A stretch of 51,574 nt of DNA from a virus. A program made the translations under genes and the position numbers. Positions 29,720-44,439 of the stretch are shown here, one piece after another (position 1 is the stretch's first letter; each line of letters starts with the position of its first letter). The notes beneath the pieces are model-generated. The model was given only the letters and a program-made list of their open reading frames with translations, was not told the origin of the DNA and did not search any database. The stretch covers positions 1-51,574 of IMG/VR virus record IMGVR_UViG_3300012682_000002. One strand, written 5' to 3'.

Positions 29720-30028
29720 TCATCGCGCGGCACCCACGTGCCTTAACGTCATACCGTACTCATCCGCGCCGGGCGAGATCGCAAGACCGGCACGTCTCCG
29801 CAGCATGTTCTTGCGGAAACGGCGATAATCGACATGATGATGCCAGCGGCCGAACCTCCAGACGAGGCGCGAAACATCGGGGTGCAACGCCACCTGCATC
29901 TGTGACTTCGCTAGCGTGCCCTCATGAGTGTAAAAGGCGTCGGTGTTGCCGCCACGGAACGCTTGCGTCGTCGTCTTGTCTTGAAGGAACGCGTTGAACT
30001 CAATCGTGCACCAACCGGCCTTGAGCAT
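29720..30028 (-). CDS. GT-A glycosyltransferase-like protein, C-terminal fragment (frame continues upstream to the G8 tract)
   Basis: This frame is open from 30187 and reads ...RGRYNEDTDLSLRMLKAGWCTIEF..., an ED-x-DL-x-LR motif typical of GT-A enzymes. Confidence 0.5.
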   Translation of the reverse strand: MLKAGWCTIEFNAFLQDKTTTQAFRGGNTDAFYTHEGTLAKSQMQVALHPDVSRLVWRFGRWHHHVDYRRFRKNMLRRRAGLAISPGADEYGMTLRHVGAAR

Positions 30029-30167
30029 CCGTAGGGAAAGATCGGTGTCCTCGTTGTACCGGCCGCGCCAGCGGAACGGAACGTCGTTGCGAATCAGGTT
30101 ACAGGAGTAGATTCGAGTGTTGAGGGTGAAGGGCGCGGGATCGGCACGGTGAATGGGGGCGAAGCGT

Positions 30168-30632
30168 TCATAGCACGGCCCCCCCCATCGTCACATTCTC
30201 ATAGCGGGCGCAGAAATCCTCCATACACCGGAACCCGGCGCCATCAAGGATTTGTACCTTTGCGTTACGGTGCCAACGGTAGAATCGCCGAATATTGTCA
30301 TCCATCACCCAATGCCAGGTAGCCCCGGCGGCGACGGCGTGATCCCAAACGAAGTTCCGCGCCGGCCCTGGCCCCATGCTCTTGCGGTCGCCGTGGTCAT
30401 CGCACGGATCGTATGTGCGTTGATAGGCCGGATCAAGGATGAGGATCTTTGTCGGCGCGATCACGGCGGCGTAGGCGTCATACTCTGCCGCCTCGATCAC
30501 AATTCGGTATTCGACACCCATCCGTTCGAGCGCCTTGCTCGTGAGGCGCGTATCGGCGCGACCTTTCGAGACGATGTAGATCGGGTGCTCAGGATGCACT
30601 ATAGGCCAACTCGGTATGTGCTCCCCGGTCAC
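30168..30632 (-). CDS. GT-A glycosyltransferase-like protein, N-terminal fragment ending just after a G8 tract
   Basis: ORF 30168-30716. IYIVSKGR and HWVMDDN (DxD-like). Start is uncertain (GTG 30632 or 30599; ATG 30716 would overlap the ParB-like gene by 128 nt). Stop lies 9 nt past C8 at 30179-30186. Confidence 0.5.
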   Translation of the reverse strand: MTGEHIPSWPIVHPEHPIYIVSKGRADTRLTSKALERMGVEYRIVIEAAEYDAYAAVIAPTKILILDPAYQRTYDPCDDHGDRKSMGPGPARNFVWDHAVAAGATWHWVMDDNIRRFYRWHRNAKVQILDGAGFRCMEDFCARYENVTMGGAVL

Positions 30633-31224
30633 GCGGCGGAAACCAGAGGCTTTTGGTTTCCGCCGTGATCTGTTGCCCAATGCACGCGGAAAAGGCATCC
30701 ACCGCCGCCGCGTCAAGGAATGAGATGGTAATCTGCCGCGCCGCGAGTTGAGGATTTACAAACTCCGGCATCCCGGCCCACTCCAATGCGAGATCCGAGC
30801 CATTCGCAGCCGGCGGAACAACCCCGGAACGCTCAGCCACGTCGACGAGTAAAGCCTGTAGCGCCTCACTCCCCGGATCGACATCACGCAGGAGCGCATC
30901 AAGGTCCGCCGCGTTCGCCGTCGCCATCGCCCCAATCGGATCGTAGGTCGCAAGAATCAAGTCAGCCTCACGCTCGTCTACATCAAGGATCAGGACCGGC
31001 ACCTCTTGATCCGACGTCAACTCGGCGCGCAAATGCCCGTCGATCAACATCAATCCAGCATCGGTCTGCCGCGCGAGGAGCGCACCGGCATAGCCGATCT
31101 CGGCGAGGAGGCCGCGCATCGCATCGCGTTGAGGCTTCGGATGCTTGCGCCAGTTCTTCGGCGACGGCGCGAGATCGCGGGCAGAAACACGGCGAAGCTC
31201 AACGATCCGATCACGCACATTCAT
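30589..31224 (-). CDS. ParB/Srx N-terminal-domain protein
   Basis: ORF 30589-31662 trimmed to ATG 31224, which follows GGAGG. LAPSPKNWRKHP and LMLIDGHLRAEL. The tail ...TKSLWFPP resembles the linker of ParB-methylase fusions. Confidence 0.7.
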   Translation of the reverse strand: MNVRDRIVELRRVSARDLAPSPKNWRKHPKPQRDAMRGLLAEIGYAGALLARQTDAGLMLIDGHLRAELTSDQEVPVLILDVDEREADLILATYDPIGAMATANAADLDALLRDVDPGSEALQALLVDVAERSGVVPPAANGSDLALEWAGMPEFVNPQLAARQITISFLDAAAVDAFSACIGQQITAETKSLWFPPRDRGAHTELAYSAS

Positions 31225-32446: not shown

Positions 32447-32898
32447 GGCTGGCTCCTCTCGCTATCGATCCCTTTTCGCTCCGCCAGCAGCGCGTGGGCG
32501 TCAACCCAAAGGCAGTGCTTGTCGTGATCGAATGATCGCTCGTGATAGGCGCTGTACGCGCCGCACGAGTCGCACCAGACGCGCCCCTCCCGAATAGCGG
32601 TCGATTCCACTGCCGCCAGCCGACGTACCAGCGCGAGCAGGGCGTCGCGGTCCTCCTGCAGCGCCGCGAGCTCGGCCTGCTGGCGGTCGATGATGGCGAG
32701 CAGCGCGTCGGTATCCTCGACGATATTGCCGACCACCTCCGTACGCCCTTCATGGCCGAAGCACTGGATCGCAATGCGCCCAAGTTGGTCCCGCACCGTC
32801 GCGTCGTTGTTGCCGCGACCGACCGGCACGAGGTCGCGCATATGGCCCAGCCGCTCCCGAATCGCCGCCACCTGCTGCCGCTCGTCGTCAGTCATCAC
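32443..32898 (-). CDS. Hypothetical protein (paralogue of 32045-32446), Cys/His cluster
   Basis: 151 aa. DALLALVRRLAA, WCDSCGAYSAYHERSFDHDKHC and C-terminal ERSQP. Confidence 0.55.
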   Translation of the reverse strand: MMTDDERQQVAAIRERLGHMRDLVPVGRGNNDATVRDQLGRIAIQCFGHEGRTEVVGNIVEDTDALLAIIDRQQAELAALQEDRDALLALVRRLAAVESTAIREGRVWCDSCGAYSAYHERSFDHDKHCLWVDAHALLAERKGIDSERSQP

Positions 32899-32958
32899 GC
32901 CCCCTCCCTTGATCGCCCATCCGCTGTAAATCGCGCGTGCCGGTGGGGCGTAAATGGG

Positions 32959-34971
32959 TCACAGCGCCATCACCTGCTGGCTCAACCTGCCCTCGGCCAG
33001 CCGGCAATACTCTTCCTCTTGTTCGATGCCAATCGAACGGAAGCCGAGCGCGCGGGCAGCGATCAGCGTCGTGCCGCTGCCGGCGAAGGGGTCGATCACC
33101 GTGCCGCCCGGTTGGGTGATCATGGTGATCAAATAACGAAGTAGCTCCTGTGGCTTGACGGTTGGGTGATGGTTGCGTGCGCCACCCGTCCGCCCGGAGC
33201 CAGCGCGCGGCGAGTTGAGGCCGGCGCTGCCGTCCGTGCGGTCGGTCGCCTCGCCGCCGCTCTTGGCGGGGAGGGCGTCGAGGCCGTAGTCGCGTTCGGC
33301 GCGCGACGGCTTGGCGATGAAGAAAAATCTAGATGCAGTACCAGTGTCGCCATACGAGGGTAGTGTGCCTTGTGCGCCTAGTGGCCTGTATCGTCCATTA
33401 CGGCCACCCGCGCCCCGCCCCACTGTTTGCGGAGTCGTGCTCACCCCCGACTGCCGATCCAACTCTCCCGTTGGACATCCCTCCGCGTGGGGTTCGTCGC
33501 CGCAACAGGTAAAGACGGTGTTGGCGGGCCAGCGGCCAAGCTCGGTAACGCCAATCGCGCGTCTGCCTCCTGATCCCGATCCGTAAATCGCGCCCGTTTT
33601 CCCTGTGCCTTCTTGCAACTGGCGTAGTCCTTTCACCTCAATCCGACATTTATCAATATTGATCCCCCCCGTCCCCCACTTGGCGACGTTCGCGGCGATG
33701 GTGCCGTCGAGGGGCGCGCGGGCTAAAATGATTGGCTCCCAGTTAGATCGTTGATCGTGCGTGTTCTGTCCGGTAGTCGGCGTAGCATCGGCGAGAGCAG
33801 AAGATGCCCCCGCCGGGGCGCCGAAACACTCCGCCACAATGTTTGCAAGTACCGACGCCACCACGCGCGCGATGGGTCCGATAGCATCGTCGAGAACAGA
33901 ATGCCTCAGGGTGCCTAGCCAGTTCACCCACTCGCCGCTCGAACTGTTCTCCGCACTCCGAACATGGGACGCTTTGCCAGCGTGAAGGCACCTGTACACG
34001 GGCATGGTGTTGGGCGATATGAGCGGCGCGAGTAGTGAGTTCAAGGTTCTCAAGCCGGTTGTCATGTTTGACGCCGTTGATGTGGTGGACATTATCGTCG
34101 AATCCGAGAGGCCGTCCAAGATGTTGCTCCATGATGAAGCGATGCTCAAGGACGTTAAGACCACCTCCGGTAAGCTGGACGTATCCGTCTCTCCGTACTT
34201 TTCGCGTAATGCATTCATCGCGGCAGCGGCGAGAACAGAACCGCACGTAGCCTCGTTTCGCTCGGCTAGGCTTAACGGTAAACTCCACGGTGCAGGCAGA
34301 GCAGACGAAGCGAACCGCCATAGCAGCCCCCCCAAAGCATGATGAAGATACCGGACAAGCACACCATCAAATGGTACCACATTCAAAGGTTTCTGAGCCC
34401 ATAGGACTGGCTCCCAGCTGGGTTTTAACGCAGTCCCCCAGCCTTCCCATTGGCGGGCGAGGTCGGTGACTGGGGCGGTTACTTCACACTCGCGTTCTCC
34501 GTCGCCGTTGCCACCAATACCATCGCCATATAACCCGCCCTTGCCCATCGTCAAGCTATAGCCGGGTTGTCCCGCCTTACTGCCCACGATAGGCCGCTCT
34601 GCCCCCGCCGCCTGATCGATCGCCTTACTCACATCTAACGATTTCGGAAAACCTTGCGCGTGCATCCACGCCGCGATGCTATCTCGAATTTCGAAGCCCG
34701 CGTCCTCAATCGCCACGGCCATCCGGTGATACGTGCGTGCGCCACCAAAGGCGAGTAGATGCGCCCCCGGCTTGAGCACGCGTAGCACCTCGCGCCAGAA
34801 CGACGGATCGAAGGCGATGCCGGTGCCGTCCCACTTTTTTGACATGAATGAAAGCTCGTACGGCGGATCAGTAACACACGCATCCACCGACGCCGCCTCC
34901 ATGCCGGCCAACACGGCGCGGCTATCGCCGCAGAACAGCGTCACGCCCCCGCGCTCGAAATACGGTGTCAT
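32959..34971 (-). CDS. Beta-class DNA amino-methyltransferase (N6-adenine or N4-cytosine), interrupted by an HNH-ORF insertion
   Basis: ORF 32959-35034 with a likely ATG at 34971 after GGGGGAG. DPPY near the N-terminus. [16 protein letters not shown] and FAGSGTT near the C-terminus. The middle 675 nt is foreign. Confidence 0.8.
33743..34321 (-). CDS. HNH homing endonuclease
   Basis: 192 aa. [37 protein letters not shown] plus flanking CxxC pairs. Lower GC than its surroundings. Lies in a different frame from the host methyltransferase. Confidence 0.85.
33743..34417 (-). mobile_element. HNH-endonuclease insertion element inside the methyltransferase gene
   Basis: Bounded by the 10-nt direct repeat CTGGGAGCCA (34408-34417 and 33733-33742). 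Carries a diverged second copy of the WEPxxxAxxPL coding segment. Confidence 0.65.
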
Positions 34972-34994
34972 CGCTCCCCCTTCAGCCAGCTCTA

Positions 34995-35690
34995 TCACCC
35001 CGTCACCTCCACTGGTGGCGGGATCGCATGCCAATCAAGCGACGGCCACCGACAAAGCCGCGCGAGATCGCGCCGCTGACGGCGATCTCCAGTCACCGTC
35101 CAATACTTCACCTTTGGCGCACGTCGAACACGCCGGACATACTGCGCCGCGCCCCCTCGGAACGCCTCGCGAGTATGTTTACCAGGCACGATGTAGTCAT
35201 ACCGCGGCGTCTTCCGTTCCATGTCCGTCCATCCGGCATAGTGAAAGTTCGCCGCTCGGTAGACGTAGCCAACGTGTCCTCGCAAGGTGTCCGCGTAACT
35301 CACAATAATGCGCGGCGGGACGCGCCGGAGCGCGTGAGCAATAAACCACGTTTCACTATTGCGAGGCATCGAATCATGCACCCAAAGCCGATTAAGCTCG
35401 ATCACGATGTCCGGATTCGTCGGACACATACCGATCTGCAAATGGCGGCTAGCAGGGATTCCGAGCGTCAAGACGCCGACCACGCCCTCGGCACCAACAA
35501 GACCGAACGCATACTGCATGGGTGGTCTGCGGTGAAGGTAGTGGTAAGTAACGACGAGCGATGCCGCCTGCCGGTGATCGAGCGGTACCACCACCAAATC
35601 TGGTAGGCCCACCATTGCGTCCATGATGTCCCTCGAAAGCCAGTCTTCAAGCCGAATCTGTACCGCTTGCTTCTCGATCATAGCGATCAT
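34995..35690 (-). CDS. Mom-like GNAT-fold DNA-modification acyltransferase
   Basis: ORF 34995-35747 with a likely ATG at 35690. TYHYLHRRPP, IELNRLWV and IVSYADTLRGHVGYVYRAANFHYAG parallel phage Mu Mom (WHYS.., LELKRL, SFSDPEHGHNGGIYKAANF), recalled from memory. Confidence 0.6.
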   Translation of the reverse strand: MIAMIEKQAVQIRLEDWLSRDIMDAMVGLPDLVVVPLDHRQAASLVVTYHYLHRRPPMQYAFGLVGAEGVVGVLTLGIPASRHLQIGMCPTNPDIVIELNRLWVHDSMPRNSETWFIAHALRRVPPRIIVSYADTLRGHVGYVYRAANFHYAGWTDMERKTPRYDYIVPGKHTREAFRGGAAQYVRRVRRAPKVKYWTVTGDRRQRRDLARLCRWPSLDWHAIPPPVEVTG

Positions 35691-35762
35691 GTCTCTACCC
35701 CCTCTGCCTGCTGCCCGCATCCATCCCCGCCAGCACGTCGAGCACATGGCCGACCTTGATCG

Positions 35763-36071
35763 TCATCGCCGCTCCCCCTTCAGCGCCGCCTCAATCGCGT
35801 CCCAATCGCCCGGCCGCCGCACCGCCGCATCGATCCCCGGCACCGCGCCAAGCGCATCCAGCCAGGCGCGCTGGTCGGGCCGCAGCCGGCCGCGCATCGT
35901 CTTCAGCTCCCAGGCCAGGGCGCGGCCGTCGCGCACGGCGAAAATATCGGGGAAGCCAGCCGCCGTCGCGCGCCGTGAATCGGGGATGGAATAAACCAAC
36001 CACGAGTGAAGACGAGCGAACTCAATCACCGCCACCTGGAACGCTCGCTCGCTCAGCGCGCAATCGAGCAC
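35763..36071 (-). CDS. VRR-NUC domain nuclease
   Basis: ERAFQVAVIEFARLHSWLVYSIPDSR...GFPDIFAVRDGRALAWELK fits the PD-(D/E)xK VRR-NUC pattern. Start uncertain (GTG 36071; ORF-track ATG at 36215). Confidence 0.7.
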   Translation of the reverse strand: MLDCALSERAFQVAVIEFARLHSWLVYSIPDSRRATAAGFPDIFAVRDGRALAWELKTMRGRLRPDQRAWLDALGAVPGIDAAVRRPGDWDAIEAALKGERR

Positions 36072-36618
36072 GCTCCTCGCGTCGACAGGGCCGACAGTAG
36101 ACGACCCTGTTTGTCCCCTTTCGCCTGTAGGCGTTCTCTGCTGTCGCTGGGTGGCCACGTTTGCACACTCCTCTGCGCGCAAGCAGCACCATCGGCGCCA
36201 CGCCACGCCACACATTCACTCGATGGGGCACAGGTTCGAGATGATCCGGGTTGCAACACATCCGATTTCGGCAGAGATGGTCGAGTTCCATGCCTTCGGG
36301 GATTGGTCCGCGCAAGAGGGTCCACGCAAACCGATGAGCCGTCGTAGAACCAACTCCCGCCCCCGCGTAAAACCCGCCGTAGCCGGTCCCGTACTTGCCG
36401 CCGGACCACTCCCAACAAGACTCAGTTATCCGCACCTTCGGCCAGAAGCGATCGCTTGGCGGGATCGGCGTGATGACAGGATGTGTGCCACGTCCATTGT
36501 GGCCGTGGATGAATCGAGGCTGCCGCCGAGCACGGATCGGCACGCGACCACCGCACCCGCAGGCACACAACGAGATGTCTTCGGGCATGGGAAAGCCGCC
36601 TCCGCAGATCGCACTCAT
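36022..36618 (-). CDS. HNH endonuclease
   Basis: ORF 36022-36717 trimmed to ATG 36618 (ATGA overlap). CWEWSG..GYGGF..AHRFAW..LDHLCRNRMCCNPDHLEPV. Confidence 0.85.
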   Translation of the reverse strand: MSAICGGGFPMPEDISLCACGCGGRVPIRARRQPRFIHGHNGRGTHPVITPIPPSDRFWPKVRITESCWEWSGGKYGTGYGGFYAGAGVGSTTAHRFAWTLLRGPIPEGMELDHLCRNRMCCNPDHLEPVPHRVNVWRGVAPMVLLARRGVCKRGHPATAENAYRRKGTNRVVYCRPCRREERARLRAERASVPGGGD

Positions 36619-37881: not shown

Positions 37882-38393
37882 CACGAAAGCTTTCCCTGAT
37901 CGACGGCATCGCGGATGGTGCTTTCGGACGGCATGGTTCGAAACGCGGACTTCACCGGCCGGCGGAACCCGTCCGACCACTCCTGATACCGGCGCTGGGA
38001 CTTGAAGAGGTTTTGCTTTCGCACCTCATCCATCATGTCGAGCCGAGGATCGTCAACCTGGCCCACGCTCGAAACCATCCCCTCGCCGATCGGCACAACG
38101 GCGTCGAGGATGCCCAACTCTTCGAACGCCGCTTGCCCGCTGGCAAGCTTCTCCATCTGGCGCTTGCCATCCGCAACTACGCGCGCATGGGCATGCCGCA
38201 TCGCCGTCTCTGCCGCCGCTTCTTCGAGCGTCGTTTGTGCGTATGTCGACGCGCGTATCTCCTTCATCACCGCGTCGCGCGCGGCTCGCATCGCCGACGC
38301 TTCATCGGCAACGTTGCCGGCCGCCTCTAAGCGGGCGATCTCCGCGCGATACGCCGTTTCCGCGGTGCTATTCCACTCGTTCATCGGGTCCAC
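37881..38393 (-). CDS. Hypothetical protein
   Basis: 170-aa helical ORF. Confidence 0.5.
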   Translation of the reverse strand: MDPMNEWNSTAETAYRAEIARLEAAGNVADEASAMRAARDAVMKEIRASTYAQTTLEEAAAETAMRHAHARVVADGKRQMEKLASGQAAFEELGILDAVVPIGEGMVSSVGQVDDPRLDMMDEVRKQNLFKSQRRYQEWSDGFRRPVKSAFRTMPSESTIRDAVDQGKLS

Positions 38394-39187
38394 TCCTTCG
38401 CGAGACTACCCAGGTTCTCCGCCGCTTCGTTCAACAACGCTGCCGTGAGCGGCTCATCCAGGAAACTACGGTCATCCGAGAACAGGGCGATCGCCCGCTC
38501 CCGTCGCGGCGCATCGGCGAGCAGATCGAGCGCCACCTTCACCGAGCGACTAAGCCGATCGCTGATGATGGTGATGTCTTCGTTCCGCCTGCGCGTCCGT
38601 TCGCCGAGTTCGGCCAACGCACCGACAAGCGTCAGTCGCTCCTCGACCACTTGATCGGCGAGGTCGGGCGCCTCGGCGCGAAGGCGCGCCATCCGCGCGT
38701 CGGTTGACTCGGCGGCGATCTTGCGGGTGCGGGCTTCGGCGTAGGCGTCGCTGAGCGGCAGACTGCCGGCCATCACTGCATCGGTGAGGTCAGGGGCATA
38801 GGTGAGGACGGTGGATGCATGAACCACACGGGAGCGATTCATACCCGCTGTCTTCGCGGCTTCTGCCTGAGAGGTGTTATTTTTTAACACCACCTGCGCC
38901 ACCACCATCGCCAGTTGCCCCTTGCTCATGTGCCGCCGGTTGACGTTGGACGAGAGGATGTAGGCGACCGGATCGTGATCGCCCAACTGCTCGAACGCCG
39001 GCTCGACGCCGGCCAGTTCGCAGGCACGGAGACGGTTGCGCCCGTCGATCAACTGGCCGTCCGTGTCGATCACGATTGGGTGGATCAAGCCGTTCGCCTT
39101 GATGTCGTCCGCCAGGTCGTGCAGCTCTTCGTCAGGCACCATCGGAAACAATGCCGCCATTGGATGTACGCGATACTCGCTTGTCAT
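38381..39187 (-). CDS. ParB N-terminal-domain DNA-binding protein
   Basis: 268 aa. HPMAALFPMVPDEELHDLADDIKANGLIHPIVI..LIDGRNRLRAC, then an HTH-like segment. RBS AGGAAAGGGGAG. Confidence 0.75.
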   Translation of the reverse strand: MTSEYRVHPMAALFPMVPDEELHDLADDIKANGLIHPIVIDTDGQLIDGRNRLRACELAGVEPAFEQLGDHDPVAYILSSNVNRRHMSKGQLAMVVAQVVLKNNTSQAEAAKTAGMNRSRVVHASTVLTYAPDLTDAVMAGSLPLSDAYAEARTRKIAAESTDARMARLRAEAPDLADQVVEERLTLVGALAELGERTRRRNEDITIISDRLSRSVKVALDLLADAPRRERAIALFSDDRSFLDEPLTAALLNEAAENLGSLAKEWTR

Positions 39188-42338: not shown

Positions 42339-43625
42339 CTACGTCACTCCGTCTCCCTCCAATCGCCGCCAGAGCTCGCGGAAGGCGGTTGCTGCTTGGA
42401 GGGGAACGACGGCGTTGCCGAGGGCGCGGAGGCGGTCGGTACGGTGGCGCATGGCAAGGTCCAGTTCTGCGGAAAACCTTGGAGCCACTCCACGAAGCGG
42501 GGCGATAAGCGCGGGCGCGAAGTCGGGCCGTTCGGCGAGGATGGCGGCCCAGGCGTCGCGGTCGGCGGGGCCGGGTGGGAAGGGCACCGATCCCAGTTGT
42601 TTGCCTGAGGGCCGAGTTTCATACCGGCGCTGTTCAGGGATGTGCGACCCGACGCGGCGTCGTTCGCTATCGGCGTCGCCCACATCGTCCGCGTCTGCTG
42701 ATCCAGCCCCATCTCGTCCACTCGGTCCCCGCCCCGGCTGCGGAAGCTGTCGGTTGCCGGGGTCTGCCAGAGCATCGCGCTGTCCGAGAGATTCAGTTGC
42801 CGGTGATGCTTGCCCACCTGCTCGCCCCGACGCAGCGCATCCAGCTCCGCTTCCGAGCGACTCCTCGGCCCGTCGCCGCTCAGGGCGTCCGGCGTCGGCC
42901 ACATCGCCGTTACTGCGGTCAGCGTGTCCGCCACGCCCCTCGTCCGACGCGCTCCGCTGCTCTCCGCGTCCTCCGCACGCGCCGTCGGCCACCGCTGCGC
43001 TACCTGTCCCAGCAGTGGTTTCCGTTCCCCATCCGTTCCCGTCGTCGATCCCCACTGGCCTGCGTCCGGGGTCGGCCAGGTCGAGTCCGGACCGTCGCGC
43101 AAGGCAGAACCATCGCTCGCGCTGATGGGAGGCACCCACGTCCGACGCACGAAGACTGAACCATTCCGCATCCCACCCGCTTTCGGCCAATGCTCCGAGA
43201 ACAACGTCAAGGTTCGGTCGAACATAGATACCTGCAACGTTTTCCAAGAAGAGGTAGCGCGCTCCCACGTCGTTAGCAATGCGGAGGATGTCAAAGAAGA
43301 GGGCGGATCGGTTGGCGTGGATGCCGCCGCGCTTACCGGCGGTACTGAGGTCCTGGCAGGGGAAGCCTCCGGCCACGAGGTCAACCGGCCCGCCTCGATC
43401 AACGACAGCGCGGAGCACATCGCCTCGGAAGGTGGCGATGTCAGACCAGATAGGGCATGGAGATAAGGAGCCGTCCGCCATGCGCGCGACCAGGACCGCG
43501 ACGCTATAGGCTTCCCTCTCAATGAGAGCGATAGGCCGGCTGCCGGGAGCGGCGTGTTCGACGGCCAGTTCGAGACCGCCGATGCCGCTAAAGCAGCCGA
43601 GGTAACGGAGGGGACGGATATCCAC
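42339..43625 (-). CDS. DNA (cytosine-5)-methyltransferase (frame A; the middle motifs lie in a second frame)
   Basis: ORF 42339-43700 with a likely GTG at 43625 after GGAG. FSGIGG (motif I), GFPCQDLS (IV), FLENV (VI), SHQRERWF (VIII) and RLRALGNAVVP (X). Confidence 0.8.
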   Translation of the reverse strand: MDIRPLRYLGCFSGIGGLELAVEHAAPGSRPIALIEREAYSVAVLVARMADGSLSPCPIWSDIATFRGDVLRAVVDRGGPVDLVAGGFPCQDLSTAGKRGGIHANRSALFFDILRIANDVGARYLFLENVAGIYVRPNLDVVLGALAESGWDAEWFSLRASDVGASHQRERWFCLARRSGLDLADPGRRPVGIDDGNGWGTETTAGTGSAAVADGACGGRGEQRSASDEGRGGHADRSNGDVADAGRPERRRAEESLGSGAGCAASGRAGGQASPATESLGQRDALADPGNRQLPQPGRGPSGRDGAGSADADDVGDADSERRRVGSHIPEQRRYETRPSGKQLGSVPFPPGPADRDAWAAILAERPDFAPALIAPLRGVAPRFSAELDLAMRHRTDRLRALGNAVVPLQAATAFRELWRRLEGDGVT

Positions 43626-43706
43626 ATGTATCACTCCAAGAGAGAGGTGACGGGGCGAGGCTGACGGAGCCGGGGTAGTAGCCCCAGCCAGCCTCGCCAC
43701 CGCCGG

Positions 43707-44143: not shown

Positions 44144-44439
44144 GCCATCACCTCCTCATAGAGATCGGCGGTACTGAGCGCCGGCGTGGCCGTGCAGCTG
44201 CAGCCGTCGGCGTGCCACGCCTCTAGCTCCCGCACATCGGCGGCGCGCTCGGTCTCCGCTGCCTGGACATTGATCCAGTGCCGCTGGCGAGGCGAGAGTC
44301 GCATCGCCTCGGCACGCCGCAACGTCGCGTAGGCGAGCAGGGCGGCGCGGCGCTGGTCGATGGCGACAGATGCGGTGGGGGCGAGTTCGCGGGCGGTTTC
44401 GCCGCGGGGGTCGGTAACGGTGAAGCAGTGGAGGATCAT
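44140..44439 (-). CDS. Hypothetical protein
   Basis: ORF 44140-44778 trimmed to ATG 44439 (ATGA overlap with the upstream stop). 99 aa. Confidence 0.5.
   Translation of the reverse strand: MILHCFTVTDPRGETARELAPTASVAIDQRRAALLAYATLRRAEAMRLSPRQRHWINVQAAETERAADVRELEAWHADGCSCTATPALSTADLYEEVMA

Follow-up and report, generated by a model that had tools for sequence, protein, structure and literature searches.

A Mom-family gene beside an amino-methyltransferase gene with a ShiLan-type insertion in an IMG/VR virus genome

The Mom protein of phage Mu protects viral DNA from host restriction. Mu Mom alone takes glycine from Gly-tRNAGly and attaches it to the N6 of adenines that stand in an S-A-S context of double-stranded DNA; rearrangement of this glycyl adduct on the base gives N6-carbamoylmethyl-deoxyadenosine (6-NcmdA), a nucleoside with a reported mass of 308 u. 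The modification is described as the work of 'a single viral enzyme' for which a partner enzyme is not needed, and active Mom homologues mined from metagenome databases are mentioned in the same study (Silva et al. 2026, PMC13219725). A second described system, the ShiLan domain, is an HNH endonuclease encoded out of frame within a phage methylase gene, which ends in TAAC, leaves no in-frame stops in the methylase and shows features of neither introns nor inteins (Arsenault, Gosselin and Gogarten 2025, PMC11855218). Here we analyse a Mom-like gene, and the amino-methyltransferase gene that follows it, in the IMG/VR virus record IMGVR_UViG_3300012682_000002. The window, by which we mean the whole stretch analysed (positions 1 to 51,574 of the record), is 51.6 kb long with 65% GC, and its minus strand holds nearly all of the genes. 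It is identical to a JGI metagenome contig of equal length. The Mom-like gene lies at the end of a block of replication and recombination genes, just upstream of the packaging genes, and is defined by two features:

34995 to 35690, minus strand: Mom-like gene, 231 amino acids (aa) from the ATG at 35690, a GNAT-fold Mom-family enzyme (open reading frame list, Pfam, PHROG, PDB, AlphaFold).
35698 to 35704, minus strand: Shine-Dalgarno-like GAGGGGG, 7 nucleotides (nt) 5' of the ATG at 35690 (read from the sequence).

A sequence-only reading of this DNA had placed a Mom-like acyltransferase here on the basis of three ordered motifs. The open reading frame (ORF) at 34995-35690 is indeed present, on the minus strand, which that reading did not specify, and it closes with a TGA at 34997-34995. 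All three motifs are found in the 231-aa form (HYLH at residues 50-53, IELNRL at 97-102 and SYAD...GHVGYVYRAANF at 131-149), and the profile matches given below exclude chance as their source. Several starts are available: the longest form begins at 35747 and has 250 aa, the public gene call uses 35681, and an ATG at 35624 gives 209 aa, nearer to the usual homologue length of 198-209 aa. The choice between ATG 35690 and ATG 35624 is uncertain, and the 231-aa form is used throughout.

Profile, sequence and fold comparisons all lead to the same family. The 231-aa product matches positions 2-165 of the 202 in the Pfam Mom profile PF25680 at 107.8 bits (E=7.3e-31), well over the gathering score of 27.1, and PHROG 1384, 'Mom-like DNA modification protein', at E=3.3e-38. 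A phmmer search of PDB sequences returned a single match, 8BV8, 'Methylcarbamoylase mom', which is Mu Mom (E=1.5e-12), and BLASTP against Mu Mom gave 34% identity over 136 residues (E=1e-16). The AlphaFold model of the 231-aa form, built with 40 homologues, has a mean predicted local distance difference test score (pLDDT) of 85.4 and a predicted template modelling score of 0.78, with pLDDT <50 for residues 1-15 and 50-62 for residues 16-30. Its top Foldseek matches are chains B and A of 8BV8 (E=5.4e-11 and 7.9e-10; template modelling (TM) scores 0.60/0.68), with the whole 202-residue chain aligned, and ordinary GNATs come next at E>=2e-5 and TM ~0.4. A match to the NCBIfam XF1762 family fell below threshold (27 bits against a cut-off of 50) and was not used. 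By these sequence profiles and the predicted fold, the Mom-like identity that had been proposed from the motifs is borne out, and membership of ORF 34995-35690 in the Mom family can be regarded as established.

The functional residues of Mu Mom have been mapped by mutation. Residue numbers follow either a 231-aa numbering (Karambelkar et al.) or a 241-aa numbering (Silva et al.): in the former, activity needs H48, Y49, R101, S114, D139 and Y149 (Karambelkar et al. 2020, PMC7261163), and in the latter, R111, S124, D149 and R151 are essential, H58, Y59, W48, Y159 and W181 are important, and a helix-turn-helix-like insertion at ~175-209 is indispensable (Silva et al. 2026, PMC13219725). R111 is a Mom-specific arginine and no general GNAT residue (PMC7261163). 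We aligned the window protein with Mu Mom, the Mom-like protein of Proteus phage PM87, two mycobacteriophage homologues and metagenomic relatives. In 241-aa numbering, Mu H58 and Y59 correspond to H50 and Y51 of the window protein, R111 to R101, D149 to D134 and Y159 to Y144, while S124 corresponds to T114, so that five of the six mutationally defined residues are identical and the sixth is a Ser-to-Thr exchange. H50, Y51, R101, D134 and Y144 are invariant in 40 members of the clade, and the position of Mu S124 is S or T across it; the hydroxyl is therefore kept. In the window protein, a basic, Arg/Lys-rich segment of ~33 residues (~157-189) separates the last GNAT strands, at the place of the essential insertion of Mu and similar to it in length; the full-length Foldseek alignment to 8BV8 takes this segment in.

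With a probability of roughly two in three, we read the gene as encoding a stand-alone Mom-family GNAT-fold enzyme that performs a Mu-like glycyl transfer, with the methyltransferase as an independent anti-restriction function. By homology to Mu Mom, the enzyme would bind double-stranded phage DNA after replication, flip out an adenine and transfer to its N6 the glycyl group of a host Gly-tRNAGly, and the N6-glycyl adduct would then rearrange on the base to N6-carbamoylmethyl-deoxyadenosine, a bulky adduct expected to block host restriction enzymes. ARAGORN found no tRNA in the window, and the phage is therefore without a tRNAGly of its own. The same donor and product as in Mu are likely by this homology, and the target motif and the timing after replication are likewise proposed from the prototype. 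The Mom-like gene and the methyltransferase gene would represent separately gained anti-restriction functions, not steps of one pathway. The earlier label of Mom-like acyltransferase is supported by profile, sequence and fold, and the mechanism given with it, the writing of N6-methylcarbamoyl-adenine, has been superseded by the model of tRNA-dependent glycyl transfer and rearrangement.

A number of observations weigh against this reading. Mu R151 aligns with L136; the next residue is R137, at a position not conserved in the clade. The Mom-like protein of phage PM87 has its arginine one position earlier, and in these alignments the loop may be shifted by one residue. Mu W48, which serves dimerisation and activity, aligns with R40; W48 is a Mu-specific functional residue and not a family-defining one. 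The basic insertion is predicted by AlphaFold to fold as a pair of short strands and a short helix, which is not obviously a helix-turn-helix, and identity to Mu Mom is only ~29-34%. With other residues aligned at R151 and W48, identity this low and an insertion of this predicted shape, the enzyme could depart from Mu in donor amino acid, target base context and product. Co-transcription of the Mom-like and methyltransferase genes is plausible because they share a strand and a scan of 32700-36400 for promoters and terminators found nothing over shuffle expectation; judged from spacing only, it is probable.

The first alternative accepts the family and changes the chemistry: the actinophage Mom clade would transfer another aminoacyl or acyl group, or act in another context, so that the product would not be N6-carbamoylmethyl-dA. 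We consider this unlikely, although it draws on the same departures from Mu at R151 and W48 and in overall identity, as well as on invariant residues of the clade's own (which include R54, H139, R145 and many basic residues at 159-193) and on the caution of the Mu study's authors that co-substrate and substrate are unpredictable from structure alone (PMC13219725). Against it, the core catalytic set of H-Y, R, S/T, D and Y is kept, glycine is the sole donor shown for the Mom family, and the in vivo activity screen of the Mu study took two randomly chosen metagenomic homologues, active homologues being mentioned there (PMC13219725). As a more specific form of this idea, we speculate that the soil and actinophage clade might load a different tRNA amino acid on adenine, or do so in another sequence context; judged from sequence, this is a long shot. 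If true, it would mean an undescribed N6-aminoacyl-derived DNA base in high-GC phages, one that would occur in this genome alongside N6-methyladenine or N4-methylcytosine, 5-methylcytosine and possibly glycosylated cytosine.

It is very unlikely that the protein is no DNA modifier at all, that is, a generic GNAT acetyltransferase or a TacT-like toxin acetylating aminoacyl-tRNA. Such a role would fit the 'acetyltransferase' annotation that many PhagesDB homologues bear, including those of phages MKC-IRE-02, Ohno789 and Jerm2, the position of the MKC-IRE-02 gene beside integrase and repressor genes, the GNAT fold itself and the presence of generic GNATs and TmcA among the structural matches. The Mom profile match, however, is 80 bits over its cut-off, Mu Mom is the best structural match by 5-6 orders of magnitude in E-value, the Mom-specific arginine (Mu R111) is invariant and the Mom-specific basic insertion is present.

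The gene that follows was central to the sequence-only reading, which had proposed that the Mom-like gene overlaps the start of the methyltransferase by about 25 nt and that the two form a candidate adenine hypermodification pair. Its features at the junction are:

32959 to 34971, minus strand: beta-class N6/N4 amino-methyltransferase, 670 aa, with a ShiLan-type insertion (PF01555, E=1.3e-31; PHROG 67 and 6025).
34972 to 34994, minus strand: spacer of 23 nt from the Mom stop to the methyltransferase ATG, holding the Shine-Dalgarno sequence GAAGGGGGAG (34974-34983), with no gene overlap.

On the minus strand the junction reads ...GTG GAG GTG ACG GGG TGA TAGAGCTGGCTGAAGGGGGAGCG ATG ACA CCG..., with the methyltransferase ATG at 34971-34969 behind GAAGGGGGAG. 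Related methylases all start at an equivalent MTPYY, and the public gene call (670 aa) uses the same ATG. An in-frame GTG at 34998 would produce a 4-nt GTGA overlap, a start that is supported by no homologue. The claimed overlap is therefore a 23-nt spacer that was misread with respect to strand.

The pair model in its full form, in which the Mom-like protein and the amino-methyltransferase are obligate, translationally coupled partners building a compound adenine modification, is highly improbable. In its favour, one gene directly follows the other on the same strand, across a 23-nt spacer or with the possible GTGA overlap from GTG 34998, and the related contig L033 has both genes, 1.9 kb apart. 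However, Mu Mom acts alone, the two enzymes would compete for one and the same N6 atom, there is no 25-nt overlap, and the wider distribution of the two genes does not follow the model. We surveyed 40 IMG/VR loci that encode a Mom homologue, each with flanks of up to 6 kb, searching for both methylase halves and clustering the flanking ORFs. No flanking family recurs in more than 6 of the 40 loci, and the recurrent ones are replication-module genes (VRR-NUC, SNF2 helicase, VapE-type primase and ribonucleotide reductase). Apart from the window, only about four lineages (L024/L025, L029/L030, L031 and L033) have such a methylase at a distance of a few kb, in no case directly adjacent, so that among ~45 Mom loci adjacency is unique to the window. 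The related phage L035 has three downstream genes in common with L033 and retains Mom, with no methylase. Three mycobacteriophage Mom loci have no methylase annotated within 4 kb (there the gene is found next to integrase and repressor, in the right arm or behind DNA polymerase), and five further metagenomic contexts have no methylase match within 4 kb in precomputed Pfam annotation. Conversely, the long-form methylase loci L049-L051 have no Mom, Pfam Mom being absent among neighbours within 5 kb and the tblastn search covering the methylase genes only. Given the variable neighbours and the methylase loci without Mom, Mom and the methylase are therefore independent modules, and gene neighbourhoods in ~45 loci indicate that the Mom-like gene is without a dedicated conserved partner. 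The proposed hypermodification pair thus finds no support, with a prototype that acts singly, neighbours that vary and a locus, L035, that lacks the methylase.

As a separate observation, an identical Mom homologue (P0034) lies directly downstream of an IS1595-family transposase in L134, L135 and L136, where the other flanks differ; this homologue may move as cargo of, or alongside, an insertion sequence.

The remaining partner candidate is the upstream neighbour, whose stop is separated from ATG 35690 by 72 nt:

35763 to 36215, minus strand: VRR-NUC (PD-(D/E)XK) nuclease, 150 aa (PF08774, E=6.8e-5, just under the gathering cut-off; PHROG 93 and 5702).

A modification/restriction pair, in which Mom protects phage DNA and the nuclease attacks unmodified DNA, is barely credible despite the immediate adjacency in the window, a VRR-NUC-like gene directly after Mom in L006-L008 (~2268-2579) and the Mom-restriction endonuclease fusions of jumbo phages (PMC7824862), as the Pfam match has a borderline score, phage replication modules commonly contain VRR-NUC genes with recombination and resolvase roles, and adjacency is seen in two independent lineages only, so that it may simply mirror the location in a replication module.

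The methyltransferase gene is itself interrupted by a second gene. Its motif DPPY (34858-34869) lies in the N-terminal half, and motif X with FAGSGTT (33067-33087) in the C-terminal half, with ~225 codons between the two halves. The features of this intervening stretch are:

34384 to 34416, minus strand: methylase motif VIII, first copy, bordering the insertion on its 5' side (alignment with interrupted and uninterrupted relatives; the duplication is also in ShiLan gp65).
33743 to 34321, minus strand: hidden HNH endonuclease ORF, 192 aa, nested out of frame (PF13392 HNH_3, E=1.2e-9; PHROG 14913, E=9e-21).
33709 to 33741, minus strand: methylase motif VIII, second and native-like copy, which begins 2 nt past the HNH stop (sequence and alignment).

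The insertion follows GWGTALKPS. The motif VIII copy at its 5' edge has the form xEPVV[C/W]A[R/Q]KP[F/L], and the native-like copy, xEP[V/I]VVARKPL, comes after the HNH stop, a TAA followed by C (TAAC) that ends 1 nt before it. ShiLan gp65 (L140) has the same insertion site, with motif VIII copies at residues ~560 and ~777, and the window HNH is 44% identical to the DNA-encoded product under gp65 and its relatives (E=5e-29). A search of the ShiLan paper for the words 'duplicat' and 'repeat' found no mention of a flanking motif VIII duplication (PMC11855218). It should be noted that the first motif VIII copies are alike across genomes, as if travelling with the element.

Across the insertion the methylase frame contains 0 stops in 661 nt, for which synonymous resampling gives P(0)=0.02-0.04. 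A scan of IMG/VR with the single HNH protein found three distant loci only, and we therefore rely on a survey in which the metagenome was sampled through an alignment of HNH proteins, a route unbiased for an open methylase frame. Its 27 loci (the window, L033, L049-L056 and L058-L074) combine those sampled in this way with the window, L033 and L049-L051, and have GC of 33-71% and HNH identity of 35-72%. In 27 of 27 the methylase frame is free of stops (per-locus P 0.006-0.16), and in 27 of 27 the HNH sits at the same frame offset inside the methylase. In L050 (5663-5986) and L070 the nested HNH has a premature stop with the methylase frame still open, which indicates that the endonuclease can decay while the host frame is maintained. 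Because its own frame stays open, the methyltransferase is probably made as one polypeptide and functional. Group I intron, intein and split-gene readings were rejected. Over the whole window no Rfam family, intron or otherwise, reached the gathering threshold, and 33600-34550 had no such match even at E<=10; the residues at the junctions do not resemble those of inteins, and all loci have an uninterrupted frame. The idea that a nested, frame-preserving HNH is a new element was rejected as well, the ShiLan domain having been published (PMC11855218). By its sequence features, we identify the insertion as a known ShiLan-type hidden HNH homing endonuclease.

The window holds further genes for DNA modification, and the dense island described by the sequence-only reading, with a C5-methylase, a GT-A-like transferase, two ParB-like genes, the amino-methylase and the Mom-like gene, is confirmed, the GT-A-like gene proving to be a frameshifted TET-associated glycosyltransferase (TAGT; PF20691). 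The additional features are:

42339 to 43700, minus strand: C5-cytosine methyltransferase, frame disrupted (N-terminal half matches PF00145, E=7.8e-28; motifs in two frames).
29720 to 30716, minus strand: TAGT (PF20691, E=4.8e-19 for 30168-30716; PHROG 842 for both pieces).
38381 to 39187, minus strand: ParB-like N-terminal-domain protein (PF02195, E=1e-4, below cut-off; several ParB-like PHROGs).
~30589 to 31224, minus strand: second ParB-like ORF, 211 aa from the ATG at 31224 (matches the N-terminal part of methyltransferase PHROG 498, E=5e-7).

Three structural disruptions had been reported in this island. All of them exist, while the one in the amino-methylase is the nested HNH, with the methylase frame open. 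In the C5-methylase, motifs I, IV, VI and VIII (43592-43124) and X (42419) are in one frame, and a target-recognition-like region of WPTP repeats with RLSPRFVEWLQGFP (43078-42496) is in another; both frames are open for >420 codons and each matches a different methyltransferase PHROG. The switch could reflect two compensating frameshifts or some other dual-frame arrangement, and tblastn of the target-recognition-like segment of the second frame (frame B) against phages found no match. In the TAGT, one frameshift at a G8 run (~30178-30185) separates two ORFs; an assembly error, a pseudogene or a tract prone to slippage could each explain it. A non-exhaustive scan of the window ORFs found no TET/JBP dioxygenase. 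The part of PHROG 498 matched by the second ParB-like ORF would, from its sequence, correspond to a ParB-type domain. We treat the C5-methylase, the TAGT and the ParB-like ORFs as island context, and the C5-methylase is no part of the Mom function.

Base composition sets part of this region apart. Over 33800-35600, where the HNH insertion and the Mom-like gene lie, GC falls to 57-60% (65% in the window as a whole), and third-position GC is 0.58 in the HNH gene and 0.65 in the Mom gene as compared with 0.72-0.90 in most other window genes, which is consistent with recent acquisition of these two accessory genes. In the Mom-like and methyltransferase genes third-position GC is 0.65-0.71, lower than in most window genes, which is consistent with their acquisition as accessory genes. 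A megablast search of 32900-36300 against deposited phages gave no match; the window is no close relative of any isolated phage. Elsewhere in the window, a 442-aa ORF at 44436-45764 (minus strand) has a transposase-like C-terminal half (PHROG 4285, E=3e-17), and its N-terminal half contains ~3 tandem Pro-rich units of ~45 residues each (...SPP.EPGA...LP.G..P.LGHTQTAAT...).

The family to which the Mom-like protein belongs is abundant. With a protein search at E<=1e-5, 1,316 homologues were obtained; the 120 best listed show 55-69% identity and are mostly ~200 aa long, metagenomic relatives reaching 60-69%, and tblastn found a Mom-like match in 243 deposited phages; the Mu study counts >8,000 metavirome homologues (PMC13219725). 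The closest homologues in isolated phages are those of Mycobacterium phages of the genera Cheoctovirus and Fromanvirus (58-59% identity over residues 40-227), and phage homologues are annotated as 'acetyltransferase', 'hypothetical protein' or 'Mom-like DNA modification protein'. Similar stacks of genes are known from mycobacteriophages of cluster F: DillTech15 combines a Mom-like gene with a glycosyltransferase and, 5.5 kb upstream, a match to this type of methylase, and Totinger combines a Mom-like gene with a ShiLan-type methylase. Overall, the Mom-like gene of the window is an ordinary, stand-alone member of a large and widespread phage family.

Mom enzymes are a newly defined class that uses charged tRNA for DNA hypermodification, and Mu Mom is the sole member characterised in detail, the study concerned also citing active metagenomic homologues. 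The window gene stands for a large clade of high-GC soil phages and is a reasonable candidate for work on donor and target specificity across the family. The presence of a Mom-like gene, an amino-methylase, a C5-methylase and a TAGT in one 51.6-kb genome shows how anti-restriction functions accumulate as independent modules, and the adjacent methylase adds a further ShiLan-type example, extending the open-frame rule to 27 loci and to many more metagenomic lineages. These findings leave current understanding unchanged.

Compared with the described systems, the methyltransferase insertion shares with the ShiLan domain the methylase family, the insertion site at motif VIII, an HNH in the third frame, the TAAC end, the lack of an in-frame stop and the lack of an intron or intein signature. 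It differs in that the window HNH starts with ATG, not GTG, and the intein and LAGLIDADG insertions of ShiLan gp65 are absent from the window methylase. The mycobacteriophage Mom-like proteins of DillTech15 (gp95) and MKC-IRE-02 in cluster F and of Ohno789 (gp40) in cluster A belong to the same clade and have the same invariant residues, whereas their genes lie beside integrase and repressor genes or in the right-arm region of small genes, with no adjacent methylase. With respect to phage Mu, the window protein is ~30% identical to Mom and has other residues aligned with R151 and W48, and the window genome is high-GC and actinophage-like whereas Mu is a transposable enterobacterial phage. The Mom-like gene is located inside a replication module, not at a genome end, and is without a Com-like translational activator: no small zinc-finger Com ORF overlapping the mom start was found in the 72 nt left before ATG 35690, and the ORF upstream is the 150-aa VRR-NUC ending at 35763. 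Common to the two proteins are a GNAT fold, with Mu Mom as the top structural match, counterparts of H58, Y59, R111, D149 and Y159 and, in the form of Thr, of S124, a basic segment inserted between the last strands, a similar length (~230 aa) and encoding by a single gene that lacks a conserved partner.

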